NCBI GenBank assembly: GCA_036402955.1
Contig: DASWRX010000197.1
Coordinates: 472 to 64,471 of the forward strand
Direction: 5' to 3'
Source of the DNA: Thermoanaerobaculia bacterium
GTDB taxonomy: Bacteria; Acidobacteriota; Thermoanaerobaculia; Multivoradales; UBA5704
DNA: 64,000 bases
Position numbers and translations under genes: made by a program. The notes beneath the pieces are model-generated. The model ran no database searches. It worked only from the letters and a program-made list of their open reading frames with translations, and was not told where the DNA came from. This document shows, piece after piece, positions 23,686-32,383 of this stretch. Position 1 is the stretch's first letter, and the number at the start of each line of letters is the position of its first letter.

Positions 23686-23976
23686 ATGGTCCGGTCCACC
23701 ACCCTCCGCACCATCACCTTGCTCGTCCTCTGCGCGGTACTGGCGTTCCCCGTGAGGTCCGCCGCCGCGCCGCGTCCCGGAGGCGATTCCTCCACGGCCC
23801 GGCTCACCGCTCAGAATGCGGGCGACCTCTTGGGGTGGCTGCGGAACACCCTGGTGTCGTTTTGGAGCAAGGCTGGCTGCCAGGTTGATCCCAATGGCCG
23901 CTGCGTCGTGAACGGCGCAACGATCACGACGAAGGCCGGCTGCGAGCTTGATCCAAACGGCCGCTGCCACAACTAG
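23686..23976 (+). CDS. Small secreted Cys-loop repeat protein (2 x AGCxxDPNGRC)
   Basis: AAGGAG ribosome-binding site about 7 nt upstream. Signal peptide MVRSTTLRTITLLVLCAVLAFPVRSAAA. The mature part ends with KAGCQVDPNGRC...KAGCELDPNGRCHN. Confidence 0.6.
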   Translation: MVRSTTLRTITLLVLCAVLAFPVRSAAAPRPGGDSSTARLTAQNAGDLLGWLRNTLVSFWSKAGCQVDPNGRCVVNGATITTKAGCELDPNGRCHN

Positions 23977-25502
23977 GTCTTCAATGGGCCCCCTCTTCCC
24001 AGATGGTCTTCCCTGGACGAGGGGGCGCTTTTACTGAGAACCGAGGCAAGTCCATCCGTCTCGAACCGCAAGCTCGGGTCATGTCGAGCGCGGTAGAGAT
24101 AGCCCACCAGCTCCTGGGCGATCTCTGCCGTCATCGTCTCTCGCTCGACGGCCTCACAGAAAACCTTGAAAGCCGCGATGGCCTCCCGATGAACACCCTG
24201 GGCGCGGAAAATCCAGAGCATCTGCCGGGCAAGGGACTGGACTTCTCTGATCCGCCCATTCTCCAGATATAAAACTGCCAGCTCAATGGAAACCAGAGCA
24301 AAGTCGTATGCGGTCTTCTGGACGGCGAGATCTTCCCGCACGCGAACGAGAGCTGCAACGGCCTCCTCCCGCTTCCCCAGGCCGGCGGCCACCCGTCCTT
24401 CCAGCCAGCGGAATCGTACGGCCTCCAAGTCGTTGGCGCGACGAATCAAAAACTCTCGCAATCTGGGCAGGAGTGCATCCGCCTCTCCAGGCCGCCCTGT
24501 TTGGAGAAGGTTGTTCGCGAGCGTAAACCAGACGTGTCCGAGCAGCGGATCGTCCTCTCGTATCAAAAGCACCATCGTCTGCAGCGTAGCAATGGCGTCC
24601 TCAAAGTCGCCCTTCAGCGTTAGAACGTTGGCTCGATTGACGAGGAGCTTCTTCCTCTCAGTCTCTCCCGCAATGGCAAGAGCCTGATCCAGCAATTCGA
24701 TGGCCTCGGGGAGGCGTCGCTGATCCTTACGCAAAGACGCCACCAAATGAAGCACCCTGGCCTCATCGAGGAACCCCGCGCCAGAGCATGCACCGGCCTC
24801 CCAAAGGGTCCAGGCACAGGCGAAGTCCCGATCGGCCGCGGGAAGATCGCCACCAACCCGCCGAGCATTCGCCAGGTGGGCCAGCGCGTAGCCTTGCAGA
24901 CGCTTCCTCCAGGTTCCCAGGCCGGGCGCCAGCTCGGCGATGCGTACGGCGAGGCCGGCCAGGTCCCGAGCGCGATCGGCCCGGTCTGCCGCGGCTTCCA
25001 GGCTCCGCTCGCAGATCAACTCGCACAGCGCCCAGCTCCGGTAGTCCACGTCGCTCTCGACGAGAGCCCGCCCGCGGGCCGGGGAGAGGGCCTTCACGCG
25101 CTCCCAGAGGCGCCGGGCCTTCCACCGCTCGTCCTCGGCCCGGCGCAGGGGCTCCAGGGAGAGAATGGAGCGGCCCCACGCCTCGGCCGCGGCCTTCAGC
25201 GAGGCGAGAGCGGCCTCGCACCGCTCGTTCCCGATCGCGGACCCTCCCTCCGGCAAGCTCAGGGCATGGACGAGGCCGATGTGGCTGAGGGTGAGCTCCA
25301 CGGCCTCGGACGGCAGTCCCAGCACGGCGAGGATCTGGTCCAGACGCTTGCGGGAGAGGGGCTTGCGGCCGGCCTCGTAGTCGCAGACGAGGGGCGGCCC
25401 GCAGCGGAGAGCGGCGGCGAGCTCGTTCTGGTGCCAGCCCCGGATGGTGCGCAGGAGGGTCAGGGCGGTGCCCAGCGTGGGCGATAGTGGCTTTCGCGGC
25501 AT
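23973..25502 (-). CDS. XRE-family HTH + TPR transcriptional regulator
   Basis: N-terminal HTH (LRTIRGWHQNELAAALRCGPPLVCDYEAGRKPLSRKRLDQILAVLG), then about 400 aa of TPR-like helical repeats. Start at ATG 25502 (MPRKPLS). Confidence 0.8.
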   Translation of the reverse strand: MPRKPLSPTLGTALTLLRTIRGWHQNELAAALRCGPPLVCDYEAGRKPLSRKRLDQILAVLGLPSEAVELTLSHIGLVHALSLPEGGSAIGNERCEAALASLKAAAEAWGRSILSLEPLRRAEDERWKARRLWERVKALSPARGRALVESDVDYRSWALCELICERSLEAAADRADRARDLAGLAVRIAELAPGLGTWRKRLQGYALAHLANARRVGGDLPAADRDFACAWTLWEAGACSGAGFLDEARVLHLVASLRKDQRRLPEAIELLDQALAIAGETERKKLLVNRANVLTLKGDFEDAIATLQTMVLLIREDDPLLGHVWFTLANNLLQTGRPGEADALLPRLREFLIRRANDLEAVRFRWLEGRVAAGLGKREEAVAALVRVREDLAVQKTAYDFALVSIELAVLYLENGRIREVQSLARQMLWIFRAQGVHREAIAAFKVFCEAVERETMTAEIAQELVGYLYRARHDPSLRFETDGLASVLSKSAPSSREDHLGRGGPLKT

Positions 25503-25739
25503 CCGGACGTCCAGGGAAATTAACGTTCCTCTTATGTCTAAGTAGCCGGAGAGCCTTATTTCGGGACACCTCTCGACGCGATTCCTTCCCGAGAGGTAGG
25601 GATCGAAGGAATTCTCCGGGACGTGGGCGTCATCTCTGAAGAAGTTCTCCGTCGCTTCCGGAGAGTACGGCCCGCGGCCTACCGTGGAGTGCAGCCAGGG
25701 GCCGGCAGATCCGCTGCCCCGGAGGGAGGAGATGCCGTG

Positions 25740-26000
25740 ATGACCGAGGCCGAGACCGCCGCGCAGGAAGCGCTCCGTCACATCGTCAAGGACCTGGAGG
25801 CGATCCGCTTCCGTCTCTGGGGAGTCCATTCGACGTTGCCCGTGCCGGCCCGGGAGACGGCCATGCTCGTGGGTGAGGAGGACATGGATGTGGCGCTGGA
25901 GGTGCGCACCGTGATCGAGTGCGTCATCAACGACTGGATCTCCTCGGCGATCCGGGACCTCCAGGCGGCGGCGGAGTATCGGCCGGACTCGGAGGAGTGA
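25740..26000 (+). CDS. Hypothetical small acidic protein
   Basis: ATG at 25740 preceded by GGAGGGAGGA. 86 aa with GC3-rich codons. GTGA overlap with the next ORF. Confidence 0.5.
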   Translation: MTEAETAAQEALRHIVKDLEAIRFRLWGVHSTLPVPARETAMLVGEEDMDVALEVRTVIECVINDWISSAIRDLQAAAEYRPDSEE

Positions 26001-26659: not shown

Positions 26660-26845
26660 AATTTCCCGCTCTCGACGCCTTGAGCCGTCCGGAGAGCGCC
26701 GGATCGGCGGCCTTGACCGCCGAGAGAGTCTGCCGCGAGCGCCCCGGCCTCTGGCGAACCGGCTGGAAGCCGCCGGCCAGGAGGCGCTCGAGGGCGCGGG
26801 TTCAAGTCGGGGTGGGCACGTCCGGTAGAGGCTTGCCGGTGTTTT

Positions 26846-26920
26846 GACCCGCGGGTCCACGATTCCGACCCGCGGGTCCGATTCTGCGACCCGCGGGTCA
26901 ACGACCGCGACCCGCGGGTA
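26846..26920. repeat. Left part of the 21-bp-period palindrome array (4 units)
   Basis: GACCCGCGGGTC at 26846, 26867 and 26888. The fourth unit, starting at 26909, is interrupted after 26917 by the transposon end. Confidence 0.95.
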
Positions 26921-26935
26921 CTGGCTCATTTTGAC
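26918..26935. repeat. Left terminal inverted repeat (IRL)
   Basis: Exact reverse complement of 31018-31035. It is 19 bp if 26917 and 31036 are included. Confidence 0.9.
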
Positions 26936-27098
26936 CTGACGTAAAACATTCTTTGAAATCAGGGGTTTACGTGTGGGCGGAACGGGCGTAGCGTCCTCCG
27001 GGAAGGGGAGGGATTGCCCCTCCCTTCGACACTACAAGCGGCCCGGCGGGAGTGCAGGAACACAACCGCCGGACCTGACCCGAGCAAGGAGCCAGTCC

Positions 27099-27407
27099 AT
27101 GCCCGAGCTGCCCGAAGTCTACCCCACCCCCCTCGACCTCACCCGCTACACCGAGAGCACCCGCCGCGACCTGTACGAGCGGCTGGTGCGCATCCAGTTC
27201 ACCCGGCAGGCCAGTGACCCGGAGGATGCCGCTCCCCTCCAGGACCCGGACGCCGCCGAGCTGACGGTCTTCTACCTCTTCGGCCGTTGGTTCGCCTACT
27301 GGCGGGAGCTGCCGGAGCCGGGCCTGCCCACGTGGCGCCTGACGGAGATGGTCCGCATCCAGGCCGCGCCGGATTCCCCGGACGGCATCATCCTCTACGA
27401 GATCTGA
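27099..27407 (+). CDS. Hypothetical protein (transposon passenger)
   Basis: AAGGAG 8 nt upstream of ATG 27099. 102 aa (MPELPEVYPTPLDL...). No motif recognised. Confidence 0.55.
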   Translation: MPELPEVYPTPLDLTRYTESTRRDLYERLVRIQFTRQASDPEDAAPLQDPDAAELTVFYLFGRWFAYWRELPEPGLPTWRLTEMVRIQAAPDSPDGIILYEI

Positions 27408-27410
27408 GCC

Positions 27411-27695
27411 ATGGCGTGGGACTCGAAACTCTCCTACCCTCCAGACGCCACGCGTAGCGTCTCGGTCAAGGCGACGCCTTCCCAGAAGGGCCGATGGGAG
27501 GACGCGGCACGCCGCCACGGCAAGGCGAGCGCGGGGGCGTTCCTGGCGTGGGCCGGGGACCTCTACCTCGCCCTGCTACACGCCTACCAGGACGCCGTCC
27601 AGGAGCATGACGACTCCCTGAATCCTGTCAGCTACGCGGAAGAGTTGAAGCGCCTGGAGGAGCGGGAGAAGGCCCGGAGGAAGGGCGAGAGTTGA
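27411..27695 (+). CDS. RHH-like small protein (passenger)
   Basis: VSVKATPSQKGRWEDAARRHGKASAGAFLAWAGDLYL fits strand-helix-helix. Paralogous to the N-terminus of the next ORF. 94 aa. Confidence 0.55.
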   Translation: MAWDSKLSYPPDATRSVSVKATPSQKGRWEDAARRHGKASAGAFLAWAGDLYLALLHAYQDAVQEHDDSLNPVSYAEELKRLEEREKARRKGES

Positions 27696-28138
27696 AGGTG
27701 GCGACGTTCACCGTCCACGCGACCGCCTTGCAGTCGGCGAGGTGGAAGCAGGCGGCGGAAGCTGAGGGACACCGCTCCGCCGGCACGTGGCTCGCGGCGG
27801 CGGCGGATGCCTATCTGAAGGTCCGCGCCCGGGCCGGGCAACCGATCGCCTTGGCGTGGCACCTGGGGGCGTTCACGGCTCGAATGATGGACGGTCGAGA
27901 GGTCCAGGTGCGGGGCATGGTGTCGCCTCCATTCGGGACCTACCGGGGCAATAGCCACGGGCCGGACGGGAACAAGCGGCGCACCCTCGTCCACCTTCCC
28001 ACCGGCCGCGTCATCGCCACACTCCGCAGTTCGCGCCAGTGTCGTGCTCTTGCGGCGGAGCTGGCACCGGTCCTCTTGCGCGGCGAGCTGCCGGAGCTTG
28101 GCCCGGTAGTAGACCGCCACGTCCGCGAGTCCTCGTAA
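27692..28138 (+). CDS. RHH-like N-domain protein with an unknown C-domain (passenger)
   Basis: FTVHATALQSARWKQAAEAEGHRSAGTWLAAAADAYL parallels the previous ORF. TTG start overlaps the upstream stop (TTGA); an alternative GTG start is at 27698. Confidence 0.5.
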   Translation: MKVATFTVHATALQSARWKQAAEAEGHRSAGTWLAAAADAYLKVRARAGQPIALAWHLGAFTARMMDGREVQVRGMVSPPFGTYRGNSHGPDGNKRRTLVHLPTGRVIATLRSSRQCRALAAELAPVLLRGELPELGPVVDRHVRESS

Positions 28139-28185
28139 AACCCTACGGGCGGCGCCTGTATGGGCCGCCCGTGTTACCATTGGGC

Positions 28186-28455
28186 ATGCCAAACCAGTCA
28201 CGCATGCCTAAGCGTCCCCGAGACTTCAACTCTCGCGCCTTTCAATCCGTCGCCATCCTGACCGGGGCCGAACCACTACCGCCCACAGAGCCCGTTGACC
28301 CTATACGCGCCGCGGCTGCCGCCCTGGGACGCCGCGGTGGGTTGAAGGGAGGGGCAGCCAGGGCCGCGAAGATGACTCCGGAGCAACGAAGTGAGAGCGC
28401 CCGGAAGGCGGCAGCCGCCCGGTGGAAACCGAAGGTTGACCACTCCGATGAATAG
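28186..28455 (+). CDS. Small basic protein (passenger)
   Basis: 89 aa. The C-terminal motif LGRRGGLKGGAARAAKMTPEQRSESARKAAAARW is a pattern I have seen in small phage- or TA-associated proteins. The start is uncertain (28186 or 28204). Confidence 0.45.
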   Translation: MPNQSRMPKRPRDFNSRAFQSVAILTGAEPLPPTEPVDPIRAAAAALGRRGGLKGGAARAAKMTPEQRSESARKAAAARWKPKVDHSDE

Positions 28456-28502
28456 TGCTACCGTATGCGGTGTCATTCGCAGGACTGGAGTGTCTCTGCG
28501 GC

Positions 28503-28790
28503 ATGGCTAAGAGTAGGAAGAGGCTACTGGAGGAGCTTCGCCAGAGGAAGCAGTCATGTGCACAAAGCATGGCAGACGCCGCGCTTGAAGCTTTCGGCTT
28601 TATTCGGGGCCGATCCCAGGGGCATGCGCAGGTATGGGCATACAAGCACATAACGATTACGGTTCATGCGCCGCATGGCGGCAAGGATATGGACCCGGGC
28701 GCCGTTGCTATGGTCATCCGTAAGATAGTAGAGGCCGACCTCTTCCAGCAGGCAGAAGCGAAGAAGGAGAAGCAAGAGGATGTCCACTAA
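28503..28790 (+). CDS. hicA: HicA-like toxin
   Basis: FGFIRGRSQGHAQVW...ITITVHAPHGGKDMDPGAVAMVIRKI resembles the HicA G-x-GSH / P-x-H-x-KD pattern. 11-bp overlap with hicB. The start is uncertain (28503 or 28569). Confidence 0.55.
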   Translation: MAKSRKRLLEELRQRKQSCAQSMADAALEAFGFIRGRSQGHAQVWAYKHITITVHAPHGGKDMDPGAVAMVIRKIVEADLFQQAEAKKEKQEDVH

Positions 28791-29349
28791 GAACCTCGCT
28801 TACTATTTGGGCTTGCGATACCCGTACGAAGTTCACGAACGCGAGGAAAGCTATTTCGTTACGCATCCCGACCTTGACGGATGCATGGCTGAAGGAACGA
28901 CCCTGACCGACGCCTTGTCAAATCTCGCTGACTCGCGGGAGCTTTGGATCGAAGCTAGGCTGAGTGGTGGCTATGATGTTCCTGAACCTTATTCGGAAGA
29001 ATATAGCGGACGTATTTCTCTTCGAATGACTCCCGAAGTTCATAGTCAGTTGGCTCGCATCGCCGAGCGGCGAGGAGTCAGCTTAAATCTGCTTTTAAAT
29101 TCGATACTTGCTTCTTACGCTGGCGGTGCAGAGCCCTTAGGCTCAGTGCTAAGCGAAATTAAATCGGCCCTAAGGGAGATGAGTACCGCGCCGATACCAG
29201 TTCTTCAAGCGGCGAGCGCTCGACAGACTGTTAGAACCGCGTTACTGCCAGATCACAATGATGCCTTGAGCGACGGCGCATTATTGATGCTCGGCGATTC
29301 CGCTACGCGGGCGCTGCTGAGAACGGGGAAAGGTCCTTTGAATGGATGA
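28780..29349 (+). CDS. hicB: HicB-family antitoxin (HicB N-domain + RHH C-domain)
   Basis: YPYEVHEREESYFVTHPDLDGCMAEGTTLTDALSNL (HicB fold) and SGRISLRMTPEVHSQLARIAERRGVSLNLLLNSILA (RHH). Confidence 0.85.
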   Translation: MSTKNLAYYLGLRYPYEVHEREESYFVTHPDLDGCMAEGTTLTDALSNLADSRELWIEARLSGGYDVPEPYSEEYSGRISLRMTPEVHSQLARIAERRGVSLNLLLNSILASYAGGAEPLGSVLSEIKSALREMSTAPIPVLQAASARQTVRTALLPDHNDALSDGALLMLGDSATRALLRTGKGPLNG

Positions 29350-30058
29350 AATACGAAGTTTGACCGTTCAACAGGTGCGGATTTACGCTCCAGGAATAGT
29401 GCCGCTTCTGGCGCTACGCTCTGCCCCTGGCATCGCAATTCTTCGCAAGAAGTTTGGGTTTCAGGAAATGGCGATAAACCCTACCGCCGGAGATGTGACA
29501 TTCGTTTCCGGCCTTGTCGTGCCAGAAAACGGCGATTTAGTCGCGATCAACTTTCTAGAAATTGGCGCGCAGAAGACGGCATGGGAGATTCTAGGGAGCA
29601 GCTCGACCGCGAACGCTCTTAATGATCTATTCGTAAAATTGATCACGGAATTGAGTCCGGAGATGGAGCATGCGGAGCCGCTCCTATTTACGCAGGTTAC
29701 GCAGTGCACAGTGCGCTTGGCGATCTCGTGGAAGGAACTTATCTCCGAAAAACTGGCGAGCGCGATAGAGGAGGTTCGCCATCGGTTTGATCTTCCTGTG
29801 GCCAGTACTAGAGTTGCGGGCATGAATCTGAATTTCACAATCCAGTATGACGTGAGCGATTTACGTATCAAGGAGTGGGGAATCGGCGTCCTTGACAAAA
29901 ATGTGACGCTTAACCCGGTTCCTTCCGTACCGTTCTCGGAACGGCTGTTCAACACCTCCTCCCCTCTTGATTCGGACGCGCATTTGCAGCTAGTCCAGGA
30001 TCTGGAGACGGCGCTCGCCGAAAATCAAGGGCGCCGCGCTACAGTTCGTCGCCGGTAG
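29342..30058 (+). CDS. Hypothetical protein, 8-bp overlap with hicB (passenger)
   Basis: 238-aa ORF in the AT-richest part of the window. ATG 29342 overlaps the hicB stop. No motif recognised. Confidence 0.6.
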   Translation: MDEIRSLTVQQVRIYAPGIVPLLALRSAPGIAILRKKFGFQEMAINPTAGDVTFVSGLVVPENGDLVAINFLEIGAQKTAWEILGSSSTANALNDLFVKLITELSPEMEHAEPLLFTQVTQCTVRLAISWKELISEKLASAIEEVRHRFDLPVASTRVAGMNLNFTIQYDVSDLRIKEWGIGVLDKNVTLNPVPSVPFSERLFNTSSPLDSDAHLQLVQDLETALAENQGRRATVRRR

Positions 30059-30127
30059 CCTTTCCCGTTCTGGCATAGCGAGGCCGACTCCCGTTTGTTC
30101 GTGGGCGGGTCGCAATCGGTTTGCCTC

Positions 30128-30156
30128 TTGACTTTTCCTGATCGGTCACGCATAAT
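30128..30156 (+). promoter_or_regulatory. Putative transposase promoter, possibly giving a leaderless mRNA
   Basis: TTGACT (30128-30133), a 17-nt spacer, then CATAAT (30151-30156). The ATG at 30164 lies 7 nt after the -10 element. Confidence 0.4.
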
Positions 30157-31027
30157 GTTCAGTATGACAAACGTCCTCAGCAACGCCGACCGAACCGCCG
30201 TCGTCGCCGCCCTGGTGGAAGGCAACTCGATCCGCGCCACGTCCCGGATGACGAGGGTGGCCCGGAACACGGTTACGAAGCTCCTCCTGGATCTCGCTGA
30301 GGTCTGCGCCGAGTACTCCAGCGCCAAGCTGGTCAACCTCCCTTGCAAGCGCCTCCAGGTCGATGAGATCTGGGAATTCTGCTACGCCAAAGCGAAGAAC
30401 GTCCCGGAGGACAAGAAGGGCGTTTTCGGCTATGGCGACGTCTGGACGTTCGTGGCGATCGACGCCGAGACGAAGCTGGTACCGTCGTGGCTCGTGGGCT
30501 CGCGAGACATCGGCAGCGCTACCGAGCTGATGCAGGATCTAGTCGGCCGTCTCTCGGGCCGCGTGCAGCTCACCACGGACGGGCTCAAGGCGTACGTCTC
30601 GGCGGTCGAGGATGCTTTTGGCGGGGACGTGGACTTCGCGCAGCTCCACAAGATCTACGCCGCCGCGCCGACCGGCCCGGAGACGCGCTACAGCCCGGCG
30701 GAATGCATCGGTTGCGAGAAGAAGCGGGTGGTGGGCGACCCCGACCCCAAGCACGTCTCAACGTCCTACGTCGAGCGCCAGAACCTGACGATGCGGATGT
30801 CCATGCGGCGCTTCACCCGGTTGACGAACGGCCATTCCAAGAAGGTCGAGAACCACGCCGCCGCCGTGGCCGTTCATTTCGCCTACTACAATTTTTGCAG
30901 GCCCCATTCCTCCCTGGGGAAGGGAGTGACGCCTGCAATGGCGGCCGGAGTCGAGTCCCGGAAGCTCGAAATCGTGGACTTGGTCGCCCTGCTTCCTGAT
31001 TCAGAAACTAAGGGCGAGTCAAAATGA
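30155..31027 (+). CDS. IS1-family DDE transposase (single ORF)
   Basis: N-terminal HTH (RATSRMTRVARNTVTKLL), LQVDEIWEF, WTFVAIDAETKL, LTTDGLKAY, YVERQNLTMRMSMRRFTRLTNGHSKKVENH, YNFCRPHSSL. Start is 30155 or, if leaderless, 30164. Confidence 0.85.
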   Translation: MFSMTNVLSNADRTAVVAALVEGNSIRATSRMTRVARNTVTKLLLDLAEVCAEYSSAKLVNLPCKRLQVDEIWEFCYAKAKNVPEDKKGVFGYGDVWTFVAIDAETKLVPSWLVGSRDIGSATELMQDLVGRLSGRVQLTTDGLKAYVSAVEDAFGGDVDFAQLHKIYAAAPTGPETRYSPAECIGCEKKRVVGDPDPKHVSTSYVERQNLTMRMSMRRFTRLTNGHSKKVENHAAAVAVHFAYYNFCRPHSSLGKGVTPAMAAGVESRKLEIVDLVALLPDSETKGESK

Positions 31028-31035
31028 GCCAGTAC
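31018..31035. repeat. Right terminal inverted repeat (IRR)
   Basis: Exact reverse complement of 26918-26935. Contains the transposase stop codon (31025-31027). Confidence 0.9.
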
Positions 31036-31036
31036 C

Positions 31037-31258
31037 GACCCGCGGGTCCACGACCGCGACCCACGGGTCCAGCTCTCCGACCCGCGGGTCAACAACCGCG
31101 ACCCACGGGTCCAGCTCTGCGACCCGCGGGTCAGCAACCGCGACCCACGGGTCCGGCTCTGCGACCCGCGGGTCAACGACTCCGACCCACGGGTCCAACT
31201 CTCGGACCCGCGGGTCAACAACTCCGACCCCTGGGTCCGGCGCTCCGACCCGCGGGTC
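31037..31258. repeat. Right part of the 21-bp-period palindrome array (11 units)
   Basis: 12-mers start at 31037, 31058, 31079, 31100, 31121, 31142, 31163, 31184, 31205, 31226 and 31247. GACCCGCGGGTC alternates with GACCCACGGGTC, giving a 42-bp super-repeat. One unit is the variant GACCCCTGGGTC. Confidence 0.95.
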
Positions 31259-31297: not shown

Positions 31298-31315
31298 CAG
31301 AGTGATATCACTCTG
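31298..31315. promoter_or_regulatory. 18-bp perfect palindrome, candidate operator upstream of the SPFH gene
   Basis: CAGAGTGATATCACTCTG, ending 27 nt upstream of the ATG at 31342. Confidence 0.45.
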
Positions 31316-31341: not shown

Positions 31342-32211
31342 ATGATTCGCGAACGGGAGTACAACGGCAAGCCGGGGCTCGGCATGCTGCTGCTGTTCTT
31401 CGCGCTGTTCCTCGGCTCGGTCGGCGGCTTGATCTACTCCGCCAAAGAGGGACTCGGGATCGGGATCGTCCTCTGCGTGCTGCTGATGGTGGTCGCCATC
31501 CTCGGCGAGTGCGGGCTGTTCATCGTCAATCCCAACCAGGCCAAGGTGCTGCAGTTCTTCGGCGACTACGTGGGGACGGCCCGGCTGCCGGGCCTGCGCT
31601 GGGCCAACCCGTTCTACAGCAAGCGGGGGGTCTCGGCGCGGACCCGCAACTTCGAGACCGGCAAGCTCAAGGTCAACGACAAGGCGGGCAATCCGATCGA
31701 GATCGCGGCCGTGGTGGTGTGGCGGGTGATCGACACCGCCGAGGCGCTGTTCAACGTCGACGACTACATCAACTTCGTCCAGGTGCAGAGCGAGTCGGCG
31801 CTGCGGAACCTCGCCACTCACTTCCCGTACGTCGCCGACGTGGAGGGGGAGATGGACCTCTCCGGCCACACCTCGGAGATGTCGGTGGGGCTCGCCCGCG
31901 AGATCCAGGAGCGGCTGGAGCAGGCGGGGGTGGCGGTGCTGGAGGCCCGCATCAGCCATCTCGCCTACTCGCCCGAGATCGCGTCGGCGATGCTGCAGCG
32001 CCAGCAGGCCAGCGCGGTGGTGGCGGCGCGGGCGAAGATCGTCGAGGGCGCGGTGGGGATGGTCGAGCACGCCCTGGAGATGCTCGCGGCGAAGGGGCTC
32101 GTCGAGCTCGATCCCGAGCGCCGGGCGGCCATGGTGAGCAACCTGCTGGTGGTGCTCTGCGGTGGCGGCCATCCGCAGCCGGTGGTCAACGTCGGCAGCC
32201 TGTACCACTGA
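31342..32211 (+). CDS. SPFH/Band-7 domain membrane protein
   Basis: N-terminal TM helices followed by an SPFH core ([22 protein letters not shown]...[18 protein letters not shown]...[11 protein letters not shown]). Confidence 0.9.
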
Positions 32212-32218
32212 GGCGGCC

Positions 32219-32383
32219 TTGGCGGAACGCAAGAGCTACCCGCTGCGGCTCGACCCGGAGATCTACGAATCCCTCCGGCGCTGGGCCGCGGACGAGCTGC
32301 GCAGCGTCAACGCGCAGATCGAGTTCCTGCTCGCGCGCGCCCTGCGGGAGGCGGGGCGCGCGCCGAAGGGGAGGCGGGAGTAG
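32219..32383 (+). CDS. Arc/RHH-family small DNA-binding protein
   Basis: [42 protein letters not shown] is a strand-helix-helix pattern. There is no ATG; the start is provisionally TTG 32219. Confidence 0.6.

Follow-up and report, generated by a model that had tools for sequence, protein, structure and literature searches.

Mycobacterial MIRU are intergenic, non-palindromic repeats of 40-100 bp that are oriented with the operon and often lie between genes of one operon. Plasmid iterons and ParR/parC-type centromeres are single-copy and lie on plasmids beside rep or par genes, and RHH proteins such as ParR coat 20-bp repeats. Among mobile elements, the IS1 family is characterized by inverted repeats that start GGnnnTG and by target duplications of 8-9 bp. 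The REP and BIME elements of Proteobacteria are extragenic palindromic repeats with about a hundred units per genome (PMC2817692, PMC3333891, PMC3733652), and the insertion sequences that target REP include IS1397 and ISKpn1 of the IS3 family, IS621, ISPpu9/10 and ISPa11 of the IS110 family and ISRm22 of the IS4 family (PMC1525189). Tandem repeats can also be coding, as in the PARCELs, 25-residue repeats within expressed ORFs (PMC2996958).

We analysed a window of 64,000 nt, by which we mean the whole stretch of DNA under study, from a Thermoanaerobaculia bacterium (GCA_036402955.1, contig DASWRX010000197.1, positions 472-64,471, forward strand). Its palindromic array belongs to a family for which we found no earlier description in the literature. 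Like REP/BIME, the arrays of this family are extragenic, lie mostly between co-directional or convergent genes, form regular clusters with alternating linkers, are polymorphic between strains and are a specific IS target. Unlike REP/BIME, which are imperfect palindromes of 20-40 bp that form a stem-loop, their palindrome is perfect, 12 bp long and free in its 2-bp centre; no compensatory covariation within cores maintains a stem, and the half-sites decay independently. They also differ in being strictly tandem 21-bp units, 3 to 27 per array, in bearing inward-facing half units at the array ends, and in having no GTAG/CGTC tag in the consensus unit (GTAG/CTAC is present 33 times among 900 units). 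Against the REP/BIME criterion of more than 100 copies per genome, well-sampled assemblies hold 69-160 core units in 8-11 arrays, counted with a strict seed. For 127 ORFs next to arrays, the listing of the 25 commonest families does not include the RAYT family Y1_Tnp; since RAYTs are usually single-copy, one could lie outside the fetched loci.

With MIRU the arrays share dispersed intergenic tandem repeats of variable copy number and small open frames that can overlap the stop and start codons of neighbours (here at the orthologous loci L007/L080), but they occur in any orientation and any gene configuration. They resemble iterons and parC in repeating a site every 20-22 bp, a spacing that in those systems sets proteins on one helix face for cooperative assembly. 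The arrays nevertheless do not fit a plasmid iteron or partition centromere, as they are chromosomal, occupy at least eight loci per genome and stand among heterogeneous neighbours with no linked gene. The DNA-level dyad symmetry in tandem repeats, the openness of both strands and the association with mobile elements recall PARCELs, from which the 21-bp units and the evidence against translation set the arrays apart. CRISPR was also rejected, because its 21-47-bp repeats alternate with unique spacers of similar size, whereas a 12-bp repeat is here separated by 9-bp spacers that recur within the array; no cas family is among the 25 commonest listed for the 127 neighbour ORFs.

Anatomy of the array and its transposon

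The array consists of 14 GACCC-RY-GGGTC units at a strict 21-bp period, split by an IS1-family transposon (Table 1). Cores start at 26846, 26867, 26888 and 26909 in the left half, the last reading GACCCGCGGGTA because the insertion cuts it, and then every 21 bp from 31037 to 31247 in the right half. Searched on both strands, the window gives 29 core matches against 3.0 +/- 2.4 in shuffled sequence, a value not attained in any of 100 shuffles. When the centre is allowed to vary, the 64 kb outside the array contain just three sites with one mismatch, no excess over chance, and the window has no isolated operator-like copy of the core, which speaks against the binding platform considered below. 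In-silico deletion of 26917-31044 (4,128 bp, that is, the 4,120-bp IS and one 8-bp duplication) leaves 14 units in perfect 21-bp register. The original prediction, partly supported as a whole, was right about the register, the number of units and the 4,128-bp subtraction.

It had also taken 42 bp to be the true unit. Between 31037 and 31216 the cores GACCCGCGGGTC and GACCCACGGGTC do alternate strictly, a G/A swap at core position 6 that is accompanied by two spacer types in turn, and the core at 31226 is GACCCCTGGGTC. Tandem Repeats Finder accordingly reports both period 42 (5.3 copies, 89% match) and period 21 (10.6 copies) at 31035-31258. The alternation thus stands, but in related arrays the higher-order period is 21, 42, 63 or 84 bp, and of 44 arrays only about 10 alternate by two units. 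The 42-bp super-repeat therefore belongs to local higher-order structure and is not the unit of the family.

Table 1. Coordinates of the array and the inserted element in the window
Feature	Position	Strand	Remark
Array, left part: units 1-3 and first 8 bp of unit 4, 9-bp spacers, 21-bp period	26846..26916	.	
Target-site duplication, left copy, 8 bp, GACCCGCG (core positions 1-8)	26909..26916	.	read from sequence
IS1-family transposon, 4,120 bp	26917..31036	+	perfect 19-bp inverted repeats
ORF-A, 144 aa, without known family	26973..27407	+	homologues at same end of related IS copies
ORF-B, 94 aa, without known family	27411..27695	+	
ORF-C, 148 aa, conserved accessory gene of this IS lineage	27692..28138	+	
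HicA/HicB toxin-antitoxin cargo	28455..29349 (28455-28790, 28780-29349)	+	
ORF-D, 238 aa, without known family	29342..30058	+	seen in this IS variant only
DDE transposase, IS1 family, 310 aa	30095..31027	+	
Array, right part: second duplication copy (31037-31044), remainder of unit 4, units 5-14	31037..31258	.	

The inverted repeats of the transposon read GGTACTGGCTCATTTTGAC at 26917-26935, with the complement at 31018-31036. Its transposase matches Pfam DDE_Tnp_IS1 with 26.0 bits (cutoff 24.1), and its best NCBIfam match is IS1 (4.2e-14, under the curated cutoff of that model). The repeat start GGTACTG and the 8-bp duplications fit the description of the IS1 family, and on its transposase match, ends and duplication length the element is a member of that family. 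ORF-C has more than 558 homologues and no Pfam domain; its N-terminus has a putative RHH-like strand-helix-helix pattern, which is followed by a beta-rich domain. The HicA/HicB cargo is missing from what is otherwise the same IS in contig L094.

A family of intergenic arrays

Phased core pairs were found at 93 genomic places, 89 of them in 19 species of Thermoanaerobaculia/Acidobacteriota MAGs. The arrays sit between ORFs with coding-like GC3, none of those examined lies inside a coding-like frame, their orientation to the neighbours is unrestricted, and every gene configuration occurs (38 tandem, 17 convergent and 8 divergent contexts). Many start 7-23 nt past a stop codon, and some are squeezed between convergent genes that leave 10-60 bp beyond the array. 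The half-sites GACCC and GGGTC are about 98% invariant. The core centres, which change mostly by transitions, and the spacers, whose constraints are mirror-symmetric, drift. Array edges are decayed; half-variant units point inward in 73 cases and break this rule in 11, and those at opposite ends of an array are complementary to each other.

Copy number differs between near-identical strains, and three contigs that encode an identical SPFH protein have 11, 8 and 8 units to the right of the IS. In four sets of orthologous arrays (L007/L080, L068/L078, L005/L041 and window/L011/L075) the flanks are kept and the interiors reshuffled, and orthologous arrays are retained in species whose SPFH proteins are just 87-89% identical. 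The arrays expand and contract by slippage or unequal exchange, which gives higher-order repeats of 2-4 units and the copy-number differences between strains, and they persist across species at orthologous loci.

The original prediction had considered a coding heptad repeat T-R-G-S-x-x-x, broken here by the IS, and 21 bp does equal seven codons. Dyad-symmetric coding repeats are known from PARCELs (PMC2996958), the G/A alternation is synonymous in the TRGS frame, and in nearly all arrays one strand or both can be read in this frame without meeting a stop; of 79 arrays, 65 are open in it on the GT-oriented strand, compared with 39 and 33 in the other two frames, and the spacer constraints amount to stop avoidance in the TRGS frame on both strands. 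We nevertheless rejected this reading as very improbable. Eleven arrays contain gaps that are not multiples of three (20, 22, 28, 37, 38, 41, 43 or 64 bp), sister families hit by the same IS have 20- and 41-bp periods, and the orthologues in the window, L011 and L075 are open in different frames and strands. No start codon lies upstream of the array in the window, ACC and GGG do not vary at the positions where changes would be synonymous, and the rare codons GGG and CGT dominate despite a genome GC3 near 0.9. The variability is mirror-symmetric without 3-periodicity, and arrays occupy narrow gaps between convergent genes.

Dyad sites at two-helical-turn spacing, with small DNA-binding genes close by, had also suggested that the array is an iteron, centromere or operator of local scope, recognised by the AbrB-like, RHH-like or Arc-like proteins of the neighbourhood. 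This is improbable in the extreme, since the same type of array stands beside unrelated genes at about 90 loci, and a dispersed repeat was what the prediction itself had set against the idea. The proposed partners fare no better: the 127 neighbour ORFs are heterogeneous, the 246-aa neighbour has a homologue in just one other array locus, orthologous SPFH loci keep the array while their left neighbours differ, and no par or rep family is enriched among the 25 commonest families listed for these ORFs. In the IS itself, the RHH-like ORF-C has a beta-strand that shows no covariation with the target core.

Target preference of the transposon lineage

At five loci (the window, L066, L039, L042 and L078) the IS entered the GACCC core at one and the same point or at its mirror equivalent, with L066 sharing the duplication junction of the window. 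Duplications of 8 bp were also found at L209, L217-L220 and L222, and such duplications are seen at seven independent insertions. Homologues of the transposase and of the left-end gene occur in array loci (7 loci each), in every case within IS copies that have an end beside the array. When ORF-C homologues were used to find complete IS copies, all five of these were within 21-bp arrays and had 8-bp duplications. In an unbiased metagenome scan with the inverted repeat, 11 of 17 recognisable IS ends ran into sequence with a period of 20, 21, 41 or 42 bp, the ends being taken as genuine on conserved subterminal sequence and tblastn rather than on independent annotation. The arrays hit elsewhere have a period of 20-21 bp and palindromic cores of unrelated sequence.

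This IS lineage with accessory genes inserts into palindromic cores with an 8-bp duplication, and it also enters other 20-21-bp arrays with unrelated cores. The suggestion that the array is a preferred target of the IS is therefore strongly supported by the five complete copies, the 11 ends and the recurrent insertion point, and the general targeting of such arrays by this lineage is a new finding. As in REP-targeting IS, (nearly) all copies of which occupy one defined position in an extragenic palindrome, preferably in clusters (PMC1525189), the insertions fall at a fixed point in such a repeat, and the element fits that functional class. It differs from them in its family, IS1 being absent from the five families of that survey (PMC1525189), in its conserved accessory genes and swappable cargo, and in that the arrays it hits have unrelated cores and are alike just in being palindromic and in repeating about every 21 bp.

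Possible roles of the arrays

We hold with moderate confidence that the arrays are a phased, non-coding element of double-stranded DNA, a lineage-wide family that would serve as a binding platform or form a curved tract. We propose the name "phased palindrome satellites" for this family of non-coding intergenic tandem arrays in Thermoanaerobaculia, with a 21-bp unit of inward-facing GACCC and GGGTC, a free RY centre and a 9-bp spacer. A dyad once per two helical turns places all sites on one helix face, a geometry that may provide a cooperative platform for a putative dimeric protein or an intrinsically curved tract. The transposition complex would then exploit geometry rather than a particular sequence, and the arrays may double as harmless intergenic landing sites. 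The two-turn phasing had led the original prediction to an element acting at the level of double-stranded DNA or of protein, and this is still the best reading. The period is 20-21 bp across families though core length spans 10-18 bp; since each duplication copies the repeat period, constancy of period within one family is weak evidence, and the argument is one of constancy across families, which may share ancestry.

Every part of this explanation that is directly observed is compatible with a selfish or neutral satellite that has no host function, whose arrays are regenerated by slippage and in which IS insertion is harmless. The higher-order repeats, copy-number variation and edge decay fit such a satellite, as does the lack of a linked gene family among the 127 neighbour ORFs, and core uniformity could come from concerted evolution or from seeding by a putative recombinase. 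Identical cores, however, are found in arrays with unrelated spacers across the 19 species, for which concerted evolution inside one array is insufficient. Arrays are also kept at the diverged SPFH loci, the period is constant across families with different cores, and the 25 commonest families of the 127 neighbour ORFs, as listed, include neither a RAYT-type enzyme nor any other candidate for mobilising the arrays. We consider a neutral satellite a possible but rather unlikely explanation.

Less probable, and in our view doubtful, is a REP/BIME-like RNA or single-strand element, in which transcribed arrays form GC-rich hairpins. Adjacent cores would pair into 12-bp stems with 9-nt loops, which could act in either direction as transcription terminators or as protection for mRNA 3' ends. 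Both strands are predicted to fold far more stably than shuffles (z = -9.8 and -10.9), a two-unit hairpin would give the 42-bp period naturally, and the many starts shortly after stop codons, the excess of convergent over divergent contexts and the complementary end units agree with it. Its difficulties are that cores lack compensatory covariation, that two-unit alternation is confined to a minority of arrays, and that transcription shows no preference for the strand with G-U rather than A-C pairing (same strand in 17 cases, opposite in 21). Moreover, some arrays lie in divergent promoter regions, no Rfam match or T-run was found, and hairpins are not expected to hold a 20-21-bp period with cores of 10-18 bp.

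A broader reading, tentative and on present evidence rather unlikely, takes the arrays for a new class of bacterial chromosome element with several families and a putative DNA-binding system, and the IS for one that recognises structure and not sequence. The families would be lineage- and genome-specific, many with CCC...GGG arms, and the arrays would either be covered by a putative conserved DNA-binding system or have a shape suited to it. The IS1-like accessory proteins might let the IS sense a nucleoprotein or curved structure, in a target capture guided by structure or a host factor that would be Tn7-like in spirit and act on genome-wide safe sites.

The arrays would add a REP/BIME-like repeat system to the Thermoanaerobaculia, an abundant and almost uncultured class of soil bacteria, and their unusually clean anatomy (two half-sites, constant phasing at two turns and polar ends) makes the purpose of such repeats directly testable. 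An IS1-family transposon that hits unrelated phased arrays raises the question of whether DNA geometry, a host factor or sequence governs target choice by DDE transposases, and suggests a natural system for safe-site integration. The arrays are strain-level copy-number markers and likely hot spots of assembly breaks in metagenome-assembled genomes. Two smaller observations concern their fine structure. The spacer constraints match stop-codon avoidance exactly, in one frame and on both strands, which sits uneasily with a role as double-stranded DNA, and the complementary, inward-facing half-variant units would also suit a role in single-strand pairing.

The array in the window and the element that splits it

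The palindromic core GACCC-RY-GGGTC gave 29 strand-matches in the window against 3.0 ± 2.4 in shuffles, which is far beyond chance, and no copies above chance were found elsewhere in the 64 kb. The element that interrupts the array is bounded by an 8-bp direct repeat, and once it and one copy of that repeat (4,128 bp) were removed in silico, 14 units, each of a 12-bp core and a 9-bp spacer, stood in perfect register. The register, the number of units and the subtraction of the insertion are therefore as the original prediction claimed, and its remark that the motif was not seen elsewhere in the window is borne out. It had also taken 42 bp to be the true unit. The local alternation is present, since on the right side Tandem Repeats Finder gives a 42-bp period (89% match), but the family is not built on 42 bp: of 44 arrays, only about 10 have spacers far more alike at lag 2 than at lag 1, and the best period is 21 bp in 42 arrays, 42 bp in 21, 63 bp in 12 and 84 bp in one. 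The 42 bp of the window is thus a local higher-order repeat, like those of other satellites.

Two stretches flank the array. On its left, a segment resembles the sequence coding for the C-terminus of a 143-aa ORF found in L011 and L075, orthologous loci of two other species; in that frame no start codon is listed for the window, and the segment may be a truncated or frameshifted gene. On its right, between the array and the SPFH gene, lies a perfect palindrome that is conserved with its surroundings in L011 and L075 and may be a candidate operator, perhaps for the neighbouring RHH_5 gene. A sigma-70 consensus scan found no promoter near this palindrome, and TTGCGT-17-TATCAC, tried as a promoter upstream of SPFH, failed that scan.

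Positions of features in the window and in other loci with arrays or element copies (L-numbers)
Feature	Locus	Position (strand)	Remark
HTH_31 and TPR protein	Window	23973-25829 (-)	
HTH_31-TPR paralogues	L006, L015, L023, L030, L032, L040, L053, L054, L065, L077, L085		
Resemblance to end of 143-aa ORF	Window	about 26745-26831 (+)	TAG end about 15 nt before array
143-aa ORF	L011	3659-4090	Also in L075
Cores left of element	Window	starts 26846, 26867, 26888, 26909	
Direct repeat, 8 bp	Window	26909-26916 and 31037-31044	GACCCGCG
Interrupting element, 4,120 bp	Window	26917-31036	Perfect 19-bp inverted repeats GGTACTGGCTCATTTTGAC
ORF-C	Window	27692-28138	
Cores right of element	Window	starts 31037 to 31247	21-bp steps
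Changed core centres, examples	Window	31063, 31105, 31147, 31189	
Perfect palindrome, 18 bp	Window	31298-31315	CAGAGTGATATCACTCTG
SPFH start codon	Window	31342	
RHH_5 gene	Window	32162-32383	Travels with SPFH
Same element in near-identical strain	L094	1088-5204	
Arrays of 21- or 42-bp period, unrelated cores	L015	2987-3314	
	L079	1351-1470	
	L061	3676-3953	
	L217	9704-9900	
	L218	8468-8600	
Frames opened at the array by an overlapping ATG	L007	3478-3830	
	L080	2307-2640	
IS110-family transposase locus	L221	3959-4915	
Insertions at same or mirror-equivalent core position	Window, L066, L039, L042, L078		
Insertions at comparable positions	L002, L016, L018, L029, L041		

Dispersal, surroundings and anatomy of the arrays

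The arrays form a dispersed, non-coding family that evolves fast yet persists at its loci. A search of 185,579 species, with one genome each, for pairs of cores at a 21-bp distance returned 93 places. MAGs of 19 species carrying the labels Thermoanaerobaculia, Thermoanaerobaculaceae or Acidobacteriota account for 89 of them; in unrelated phyla there are just four, all isolated pairs or very short runs. The source of the window is likewise a Thermoanaerobaculia MAG, and its ORF-C, an accessory gene of the element, is 100% identical to protein VGH73_14990. Arrays hold 3 to 27 units with an almost invariant 21-bp step, well-sampled assemblies carry 8-11 arrays and 69-160 cores, and on the 7.66-Mb chromosome OY970373.1 the arrays are spread from 0.15 to 7.39 Mb. 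The original prediction had itself named dispersal through the genome as speaking against a role specific to this locus, and dispersal over 93 places refutes such a role. Other arrays with periods of 21 or 42 bp are built on unrelated cores, and these share genomes with GACCC arrays or with each other, so that a genome holds several sequence families of phased arrays. A full-text literature search on the core 12-mers and on comparable Acidobacteria arrays found nothing relevant, its sole match to the 12-mer being an unrelated Thermus SbtR site-selection (REPSA) paper. The array is a known sort of thing, an extragenic palindromic repeat array, in a new variety.

Three contigs encoding an identical SPFH protein have 11, 8 and 8 units right of the element, and orthologous arrays of different species (L007/L080, L068/L078, L005/L041) keep their flanks and outermost units while the number and order of inner units differ. 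In L011 and L075, where SPFH is 88-89% identical, the array upstream of SPFH lacks the element, and its spacing to the conserved upstream sequence and to the conserved 18-bp palindrome is unchanged. A purely selfish or neutral satellite fits everything that has been shown; it leaves unaccounted for the identical cores amid unrelated spacers across 19 species.

The arrays are intergenic, often filling the gap completely and starting 7-23 nt past a stop codon. The genes around them are co-directional in 38 cases, convergent in 17 and divergent in 8, and the GT-oriented strand (orientation being set by GT or AC core centres) runs with co-directional neighbours in 17 cases and against them in 21. 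The original prediction had suggested that AbrB-like, RHH-like or Arc-like neighbours bind the array. The partner-gene search, an all-against-all BLAST of ORFs up to 2.5 kb from an array together with Pfam on the 127 nearest neighbours, yielded only genes of the element and clusters of orthologous loci. The proteins encoded next to arrays are of many kinds: TPR and HTH, the Pfam families met most often, reach 4-5 of 127, and Y1 transposase, cas, par and rep are not among the 25 commonest families listed. Since the element's genes are the sole families recurring beside arrays, the three candidates are not general partners, and a local operator or centromere is an unlikely explanation of the array. 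The HTH_31-TPR gene of the window has paralogues in 11 array loci, in five of which its 3' end abuts the array. We do not claim enrichment, since such genes are as dense at array loci (roughly one per 50 kb) as in the window (one per 64 kb), and the recurrence may simply reflect a large paralogue family.

Within the unit the half-sites are conserved, the centre is free, the 21-bp step is fixed and the ends are polar. Arrays were oriented by their GT or AC centres and given equal weight; orientation by C/G skew of the spacer was inconsistent between arrays and was replaced. Each of the ten arm positions is about 97-100% conserved, and the two central positions undergo chiefly transitions (GC, GT, AC, AT). 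The spacer is more weakly constrained and mirror-symmetric about its own centre: T is excluded at position 13 and A at position 21, T is rare at 14 and A at 20, position 15 is a purine and 19 a pyrimidine, and the entropy profile is mirrored likewise. The core halves change independently, double changes being no commoner than expected and rarer at outer positions, and nothing points to preservation of a stem. At array edges, units decay to half-units that retain the outer half-site only, GACCC plus a variant on the left and the variant's complement plus GGGTC on the right, a rule which 73 cases follow and 11 break. The variants differ among arrays (AATTG/CAATT in many, ATCTGT/ACAGAT in L011 and L075) and within one array are always mutual reverse complements. 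Less probably, the palindromes act as a REP-like RNA or single-strand hairpin: in favour, either strand folds strongly, arrays are placed after stop codons and end units are complementary; against, covariation and strand bias are absent. Rfam has no family matching the array. Across the arrays, replacements of the central CG at core positions 6-7 are mainly by TG, CA or both (GT, AC, AT), and at times positions 5 and 8 are altered jointly to give GACCTGCAGGTC. Such changes would be expected if methylated cytosines in CCGCGG or CGCG were deaminated.

Coding potential

On the minus strand of the window each unit could encode a T-R-G-S heptad, as the original prediction noted. We assessed coding by open-frame extension, GC3 of the extensions, start codons, per-position entropy and frames of orthologues. 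A unit of 21 bp is seven codons, nearly all arrays keep this TRGS frame free of stops on one strand or both, and 65 of 79 do so on the GT strand, where the other two frames reach 39 and 33. To clear stops from the frame on both strands would take exactly the constraints seen in the spacer. Against this, 11 arrays have gaps of 20, 22, 28, 37, 38, 41, 43 or 64 bp, the periods of sister families include 20 and 41 bp, and no start codon precedes the array in the window's TRGS frame. Comparison of orthologous loci, which the original prediction had proposed, shows that the open frame is not kept, the open frame and its strand differing among the arrays of the window, L011 and L075. Positions of ACC and GGG that would be synonymous are invariant, the rare codons GGG and CGT dominate the arrays against a GC3 near 0.9 in the genes of that genome, and variability is mirror-symmetric rather than three-periodic. 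In addition, T at 13 and A at 21 are absent whatever the adjoining base, which exceeds what stop avoidance needs. A coding repeat is therefore unlikely, and we reject the heptad reading on its non-3n gaps, lack of a start, differing orthologue frames and mirror-symmetric variability.

The match of the spacer constraints to stop avoidance on both strands is an unexplained coincidence. It may reflect selection for translatability of an intercistronic insert, by analogy with mycobacterial MIRUs, for which such selection has reportedly been proposed. In L007 and L080 the TRGS frame is opened precisely at the array by an ATG that overlaps the TGA of the upstream gene, and is closed by a TGA directly after the last unit, resembling the small overlapping ORFs described for mycobacterial MIRUs.

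The transposon and its choice of target

The arrays are the insertion target of a specialised IS1-family transposon, which is more surprising than the array. Its transposase scores 26 bits against the Pfam IS1 model (cutoff 24.1) and 4.2e-14 against NCBIfam IS1, under that model's cutoff; its ends begin GGTACTG and its target duplication is 8 bp, both of which fit the IS1 family. In GACCC arrays, relatives of the element, which have three or four types of inverted repeat among them, sit at the same or the mirror-equivalent core position, with duplications GACCCRYG or CRYGGGTC. A metagenome scan with the 18-nt end, serving as an unbiased test of target choice, gave 120 hits, most of them chance matches in unrelated, often low-GC contigs, which were set aside. 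We retained 17 ends, recognised by subterminal sequence and tblastn, and in 11 of these the adjoining sequence has self-similarity of at least 0.5 at 20, 21, 41 or 42 bp. The cores there are unrelated to GACCC (e.g. TACCCGYGGGTA, GTCCCGGGAC, GCCCGTGACGGGC, CGCCAGGTCTGGCG, CTCAAACCGAGGTTTGAG, ATCGGGCCCGAT) and 10 to 18 bp long, with core plus spacer always 20-21 bp. In a second unbiased test, copies were reached through ORF-C homologues on long contigs, and all five complete ones (L217, L218 and L219, from one 7.05-Mb genome, L220 and L222) lie inside 21-bp arrays of at least three core families, with 8-bp duplications. The suggestion in the original prediction that the array is the element's preferred target is thus strongly supported. 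The IS3, IS110, IS4, IS256 and IS5 families include IS elements that target REPs (PMC1525189); in that paper we found neither an IS1-family case nor one lineage using targets of unrelated sequence, whereas the element here belongs to IS1 and its targets have unrelated cores.

We infer that the array acts as double-stranded DNA, because conservation falls on half-site sequence rather than on pairing, each half decays without regard to the other, neither strand is favoured with respect to transcription, and families with palindromes of different length and sequence keep a period of two helical turns. Repeats in phase would align all dyads on one face of the helix, where a dimeric protein could bind cooperatively; alternatively, local bends could sum into a curved tract. 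Many array families are built on CCC...GGG arms, and phased GGGCCC-type motifs have been reported to curve DNA. Either a binding platform or curvature could be read by the transposition complex.

The element encodes the transposase, ORF-A, ORF-B and ORF-C together with variable cargo. In the window the cargo is the toxin-antitoxin pair HicAB; the copy in L094 has instead a 77-aa gene on the opposite strand, and related copies carry an HTH_3-Peptidase_M78 gene, a NikA-like gene and others, so that cargo is swapped in an element that is conserved in other respects. The accessory gene that marks the lineage is ORF-C, which is kept in all relatives at 48-87% identity; soil metagenomes hold more than 558 homologues of it, all unnamed and lacking Pfam domains. 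The accessory proteins have no sequence matches in the PDB, and for the AlphaFold model of ORF-C (pLDDT 84) Foldseek found no PDB match with E below 0.28. Its N-terminus looks RHH-like, judging by secondary-structure pattern alone, and residues of the putative DNA-reading beta-strand do not covary with the target core. With neither a structural match nor covariation, ORF-C is likelier to serve as a regulator or adaptor than to read the core. In the homologue P0102, ORF-C is fused to an upstream ORF-B-like segment. L221, where an IS110-family transposase adjoins a rearranged ORF-C fusion locus without recognisable IS1-type ends, was left out of the set of elements.
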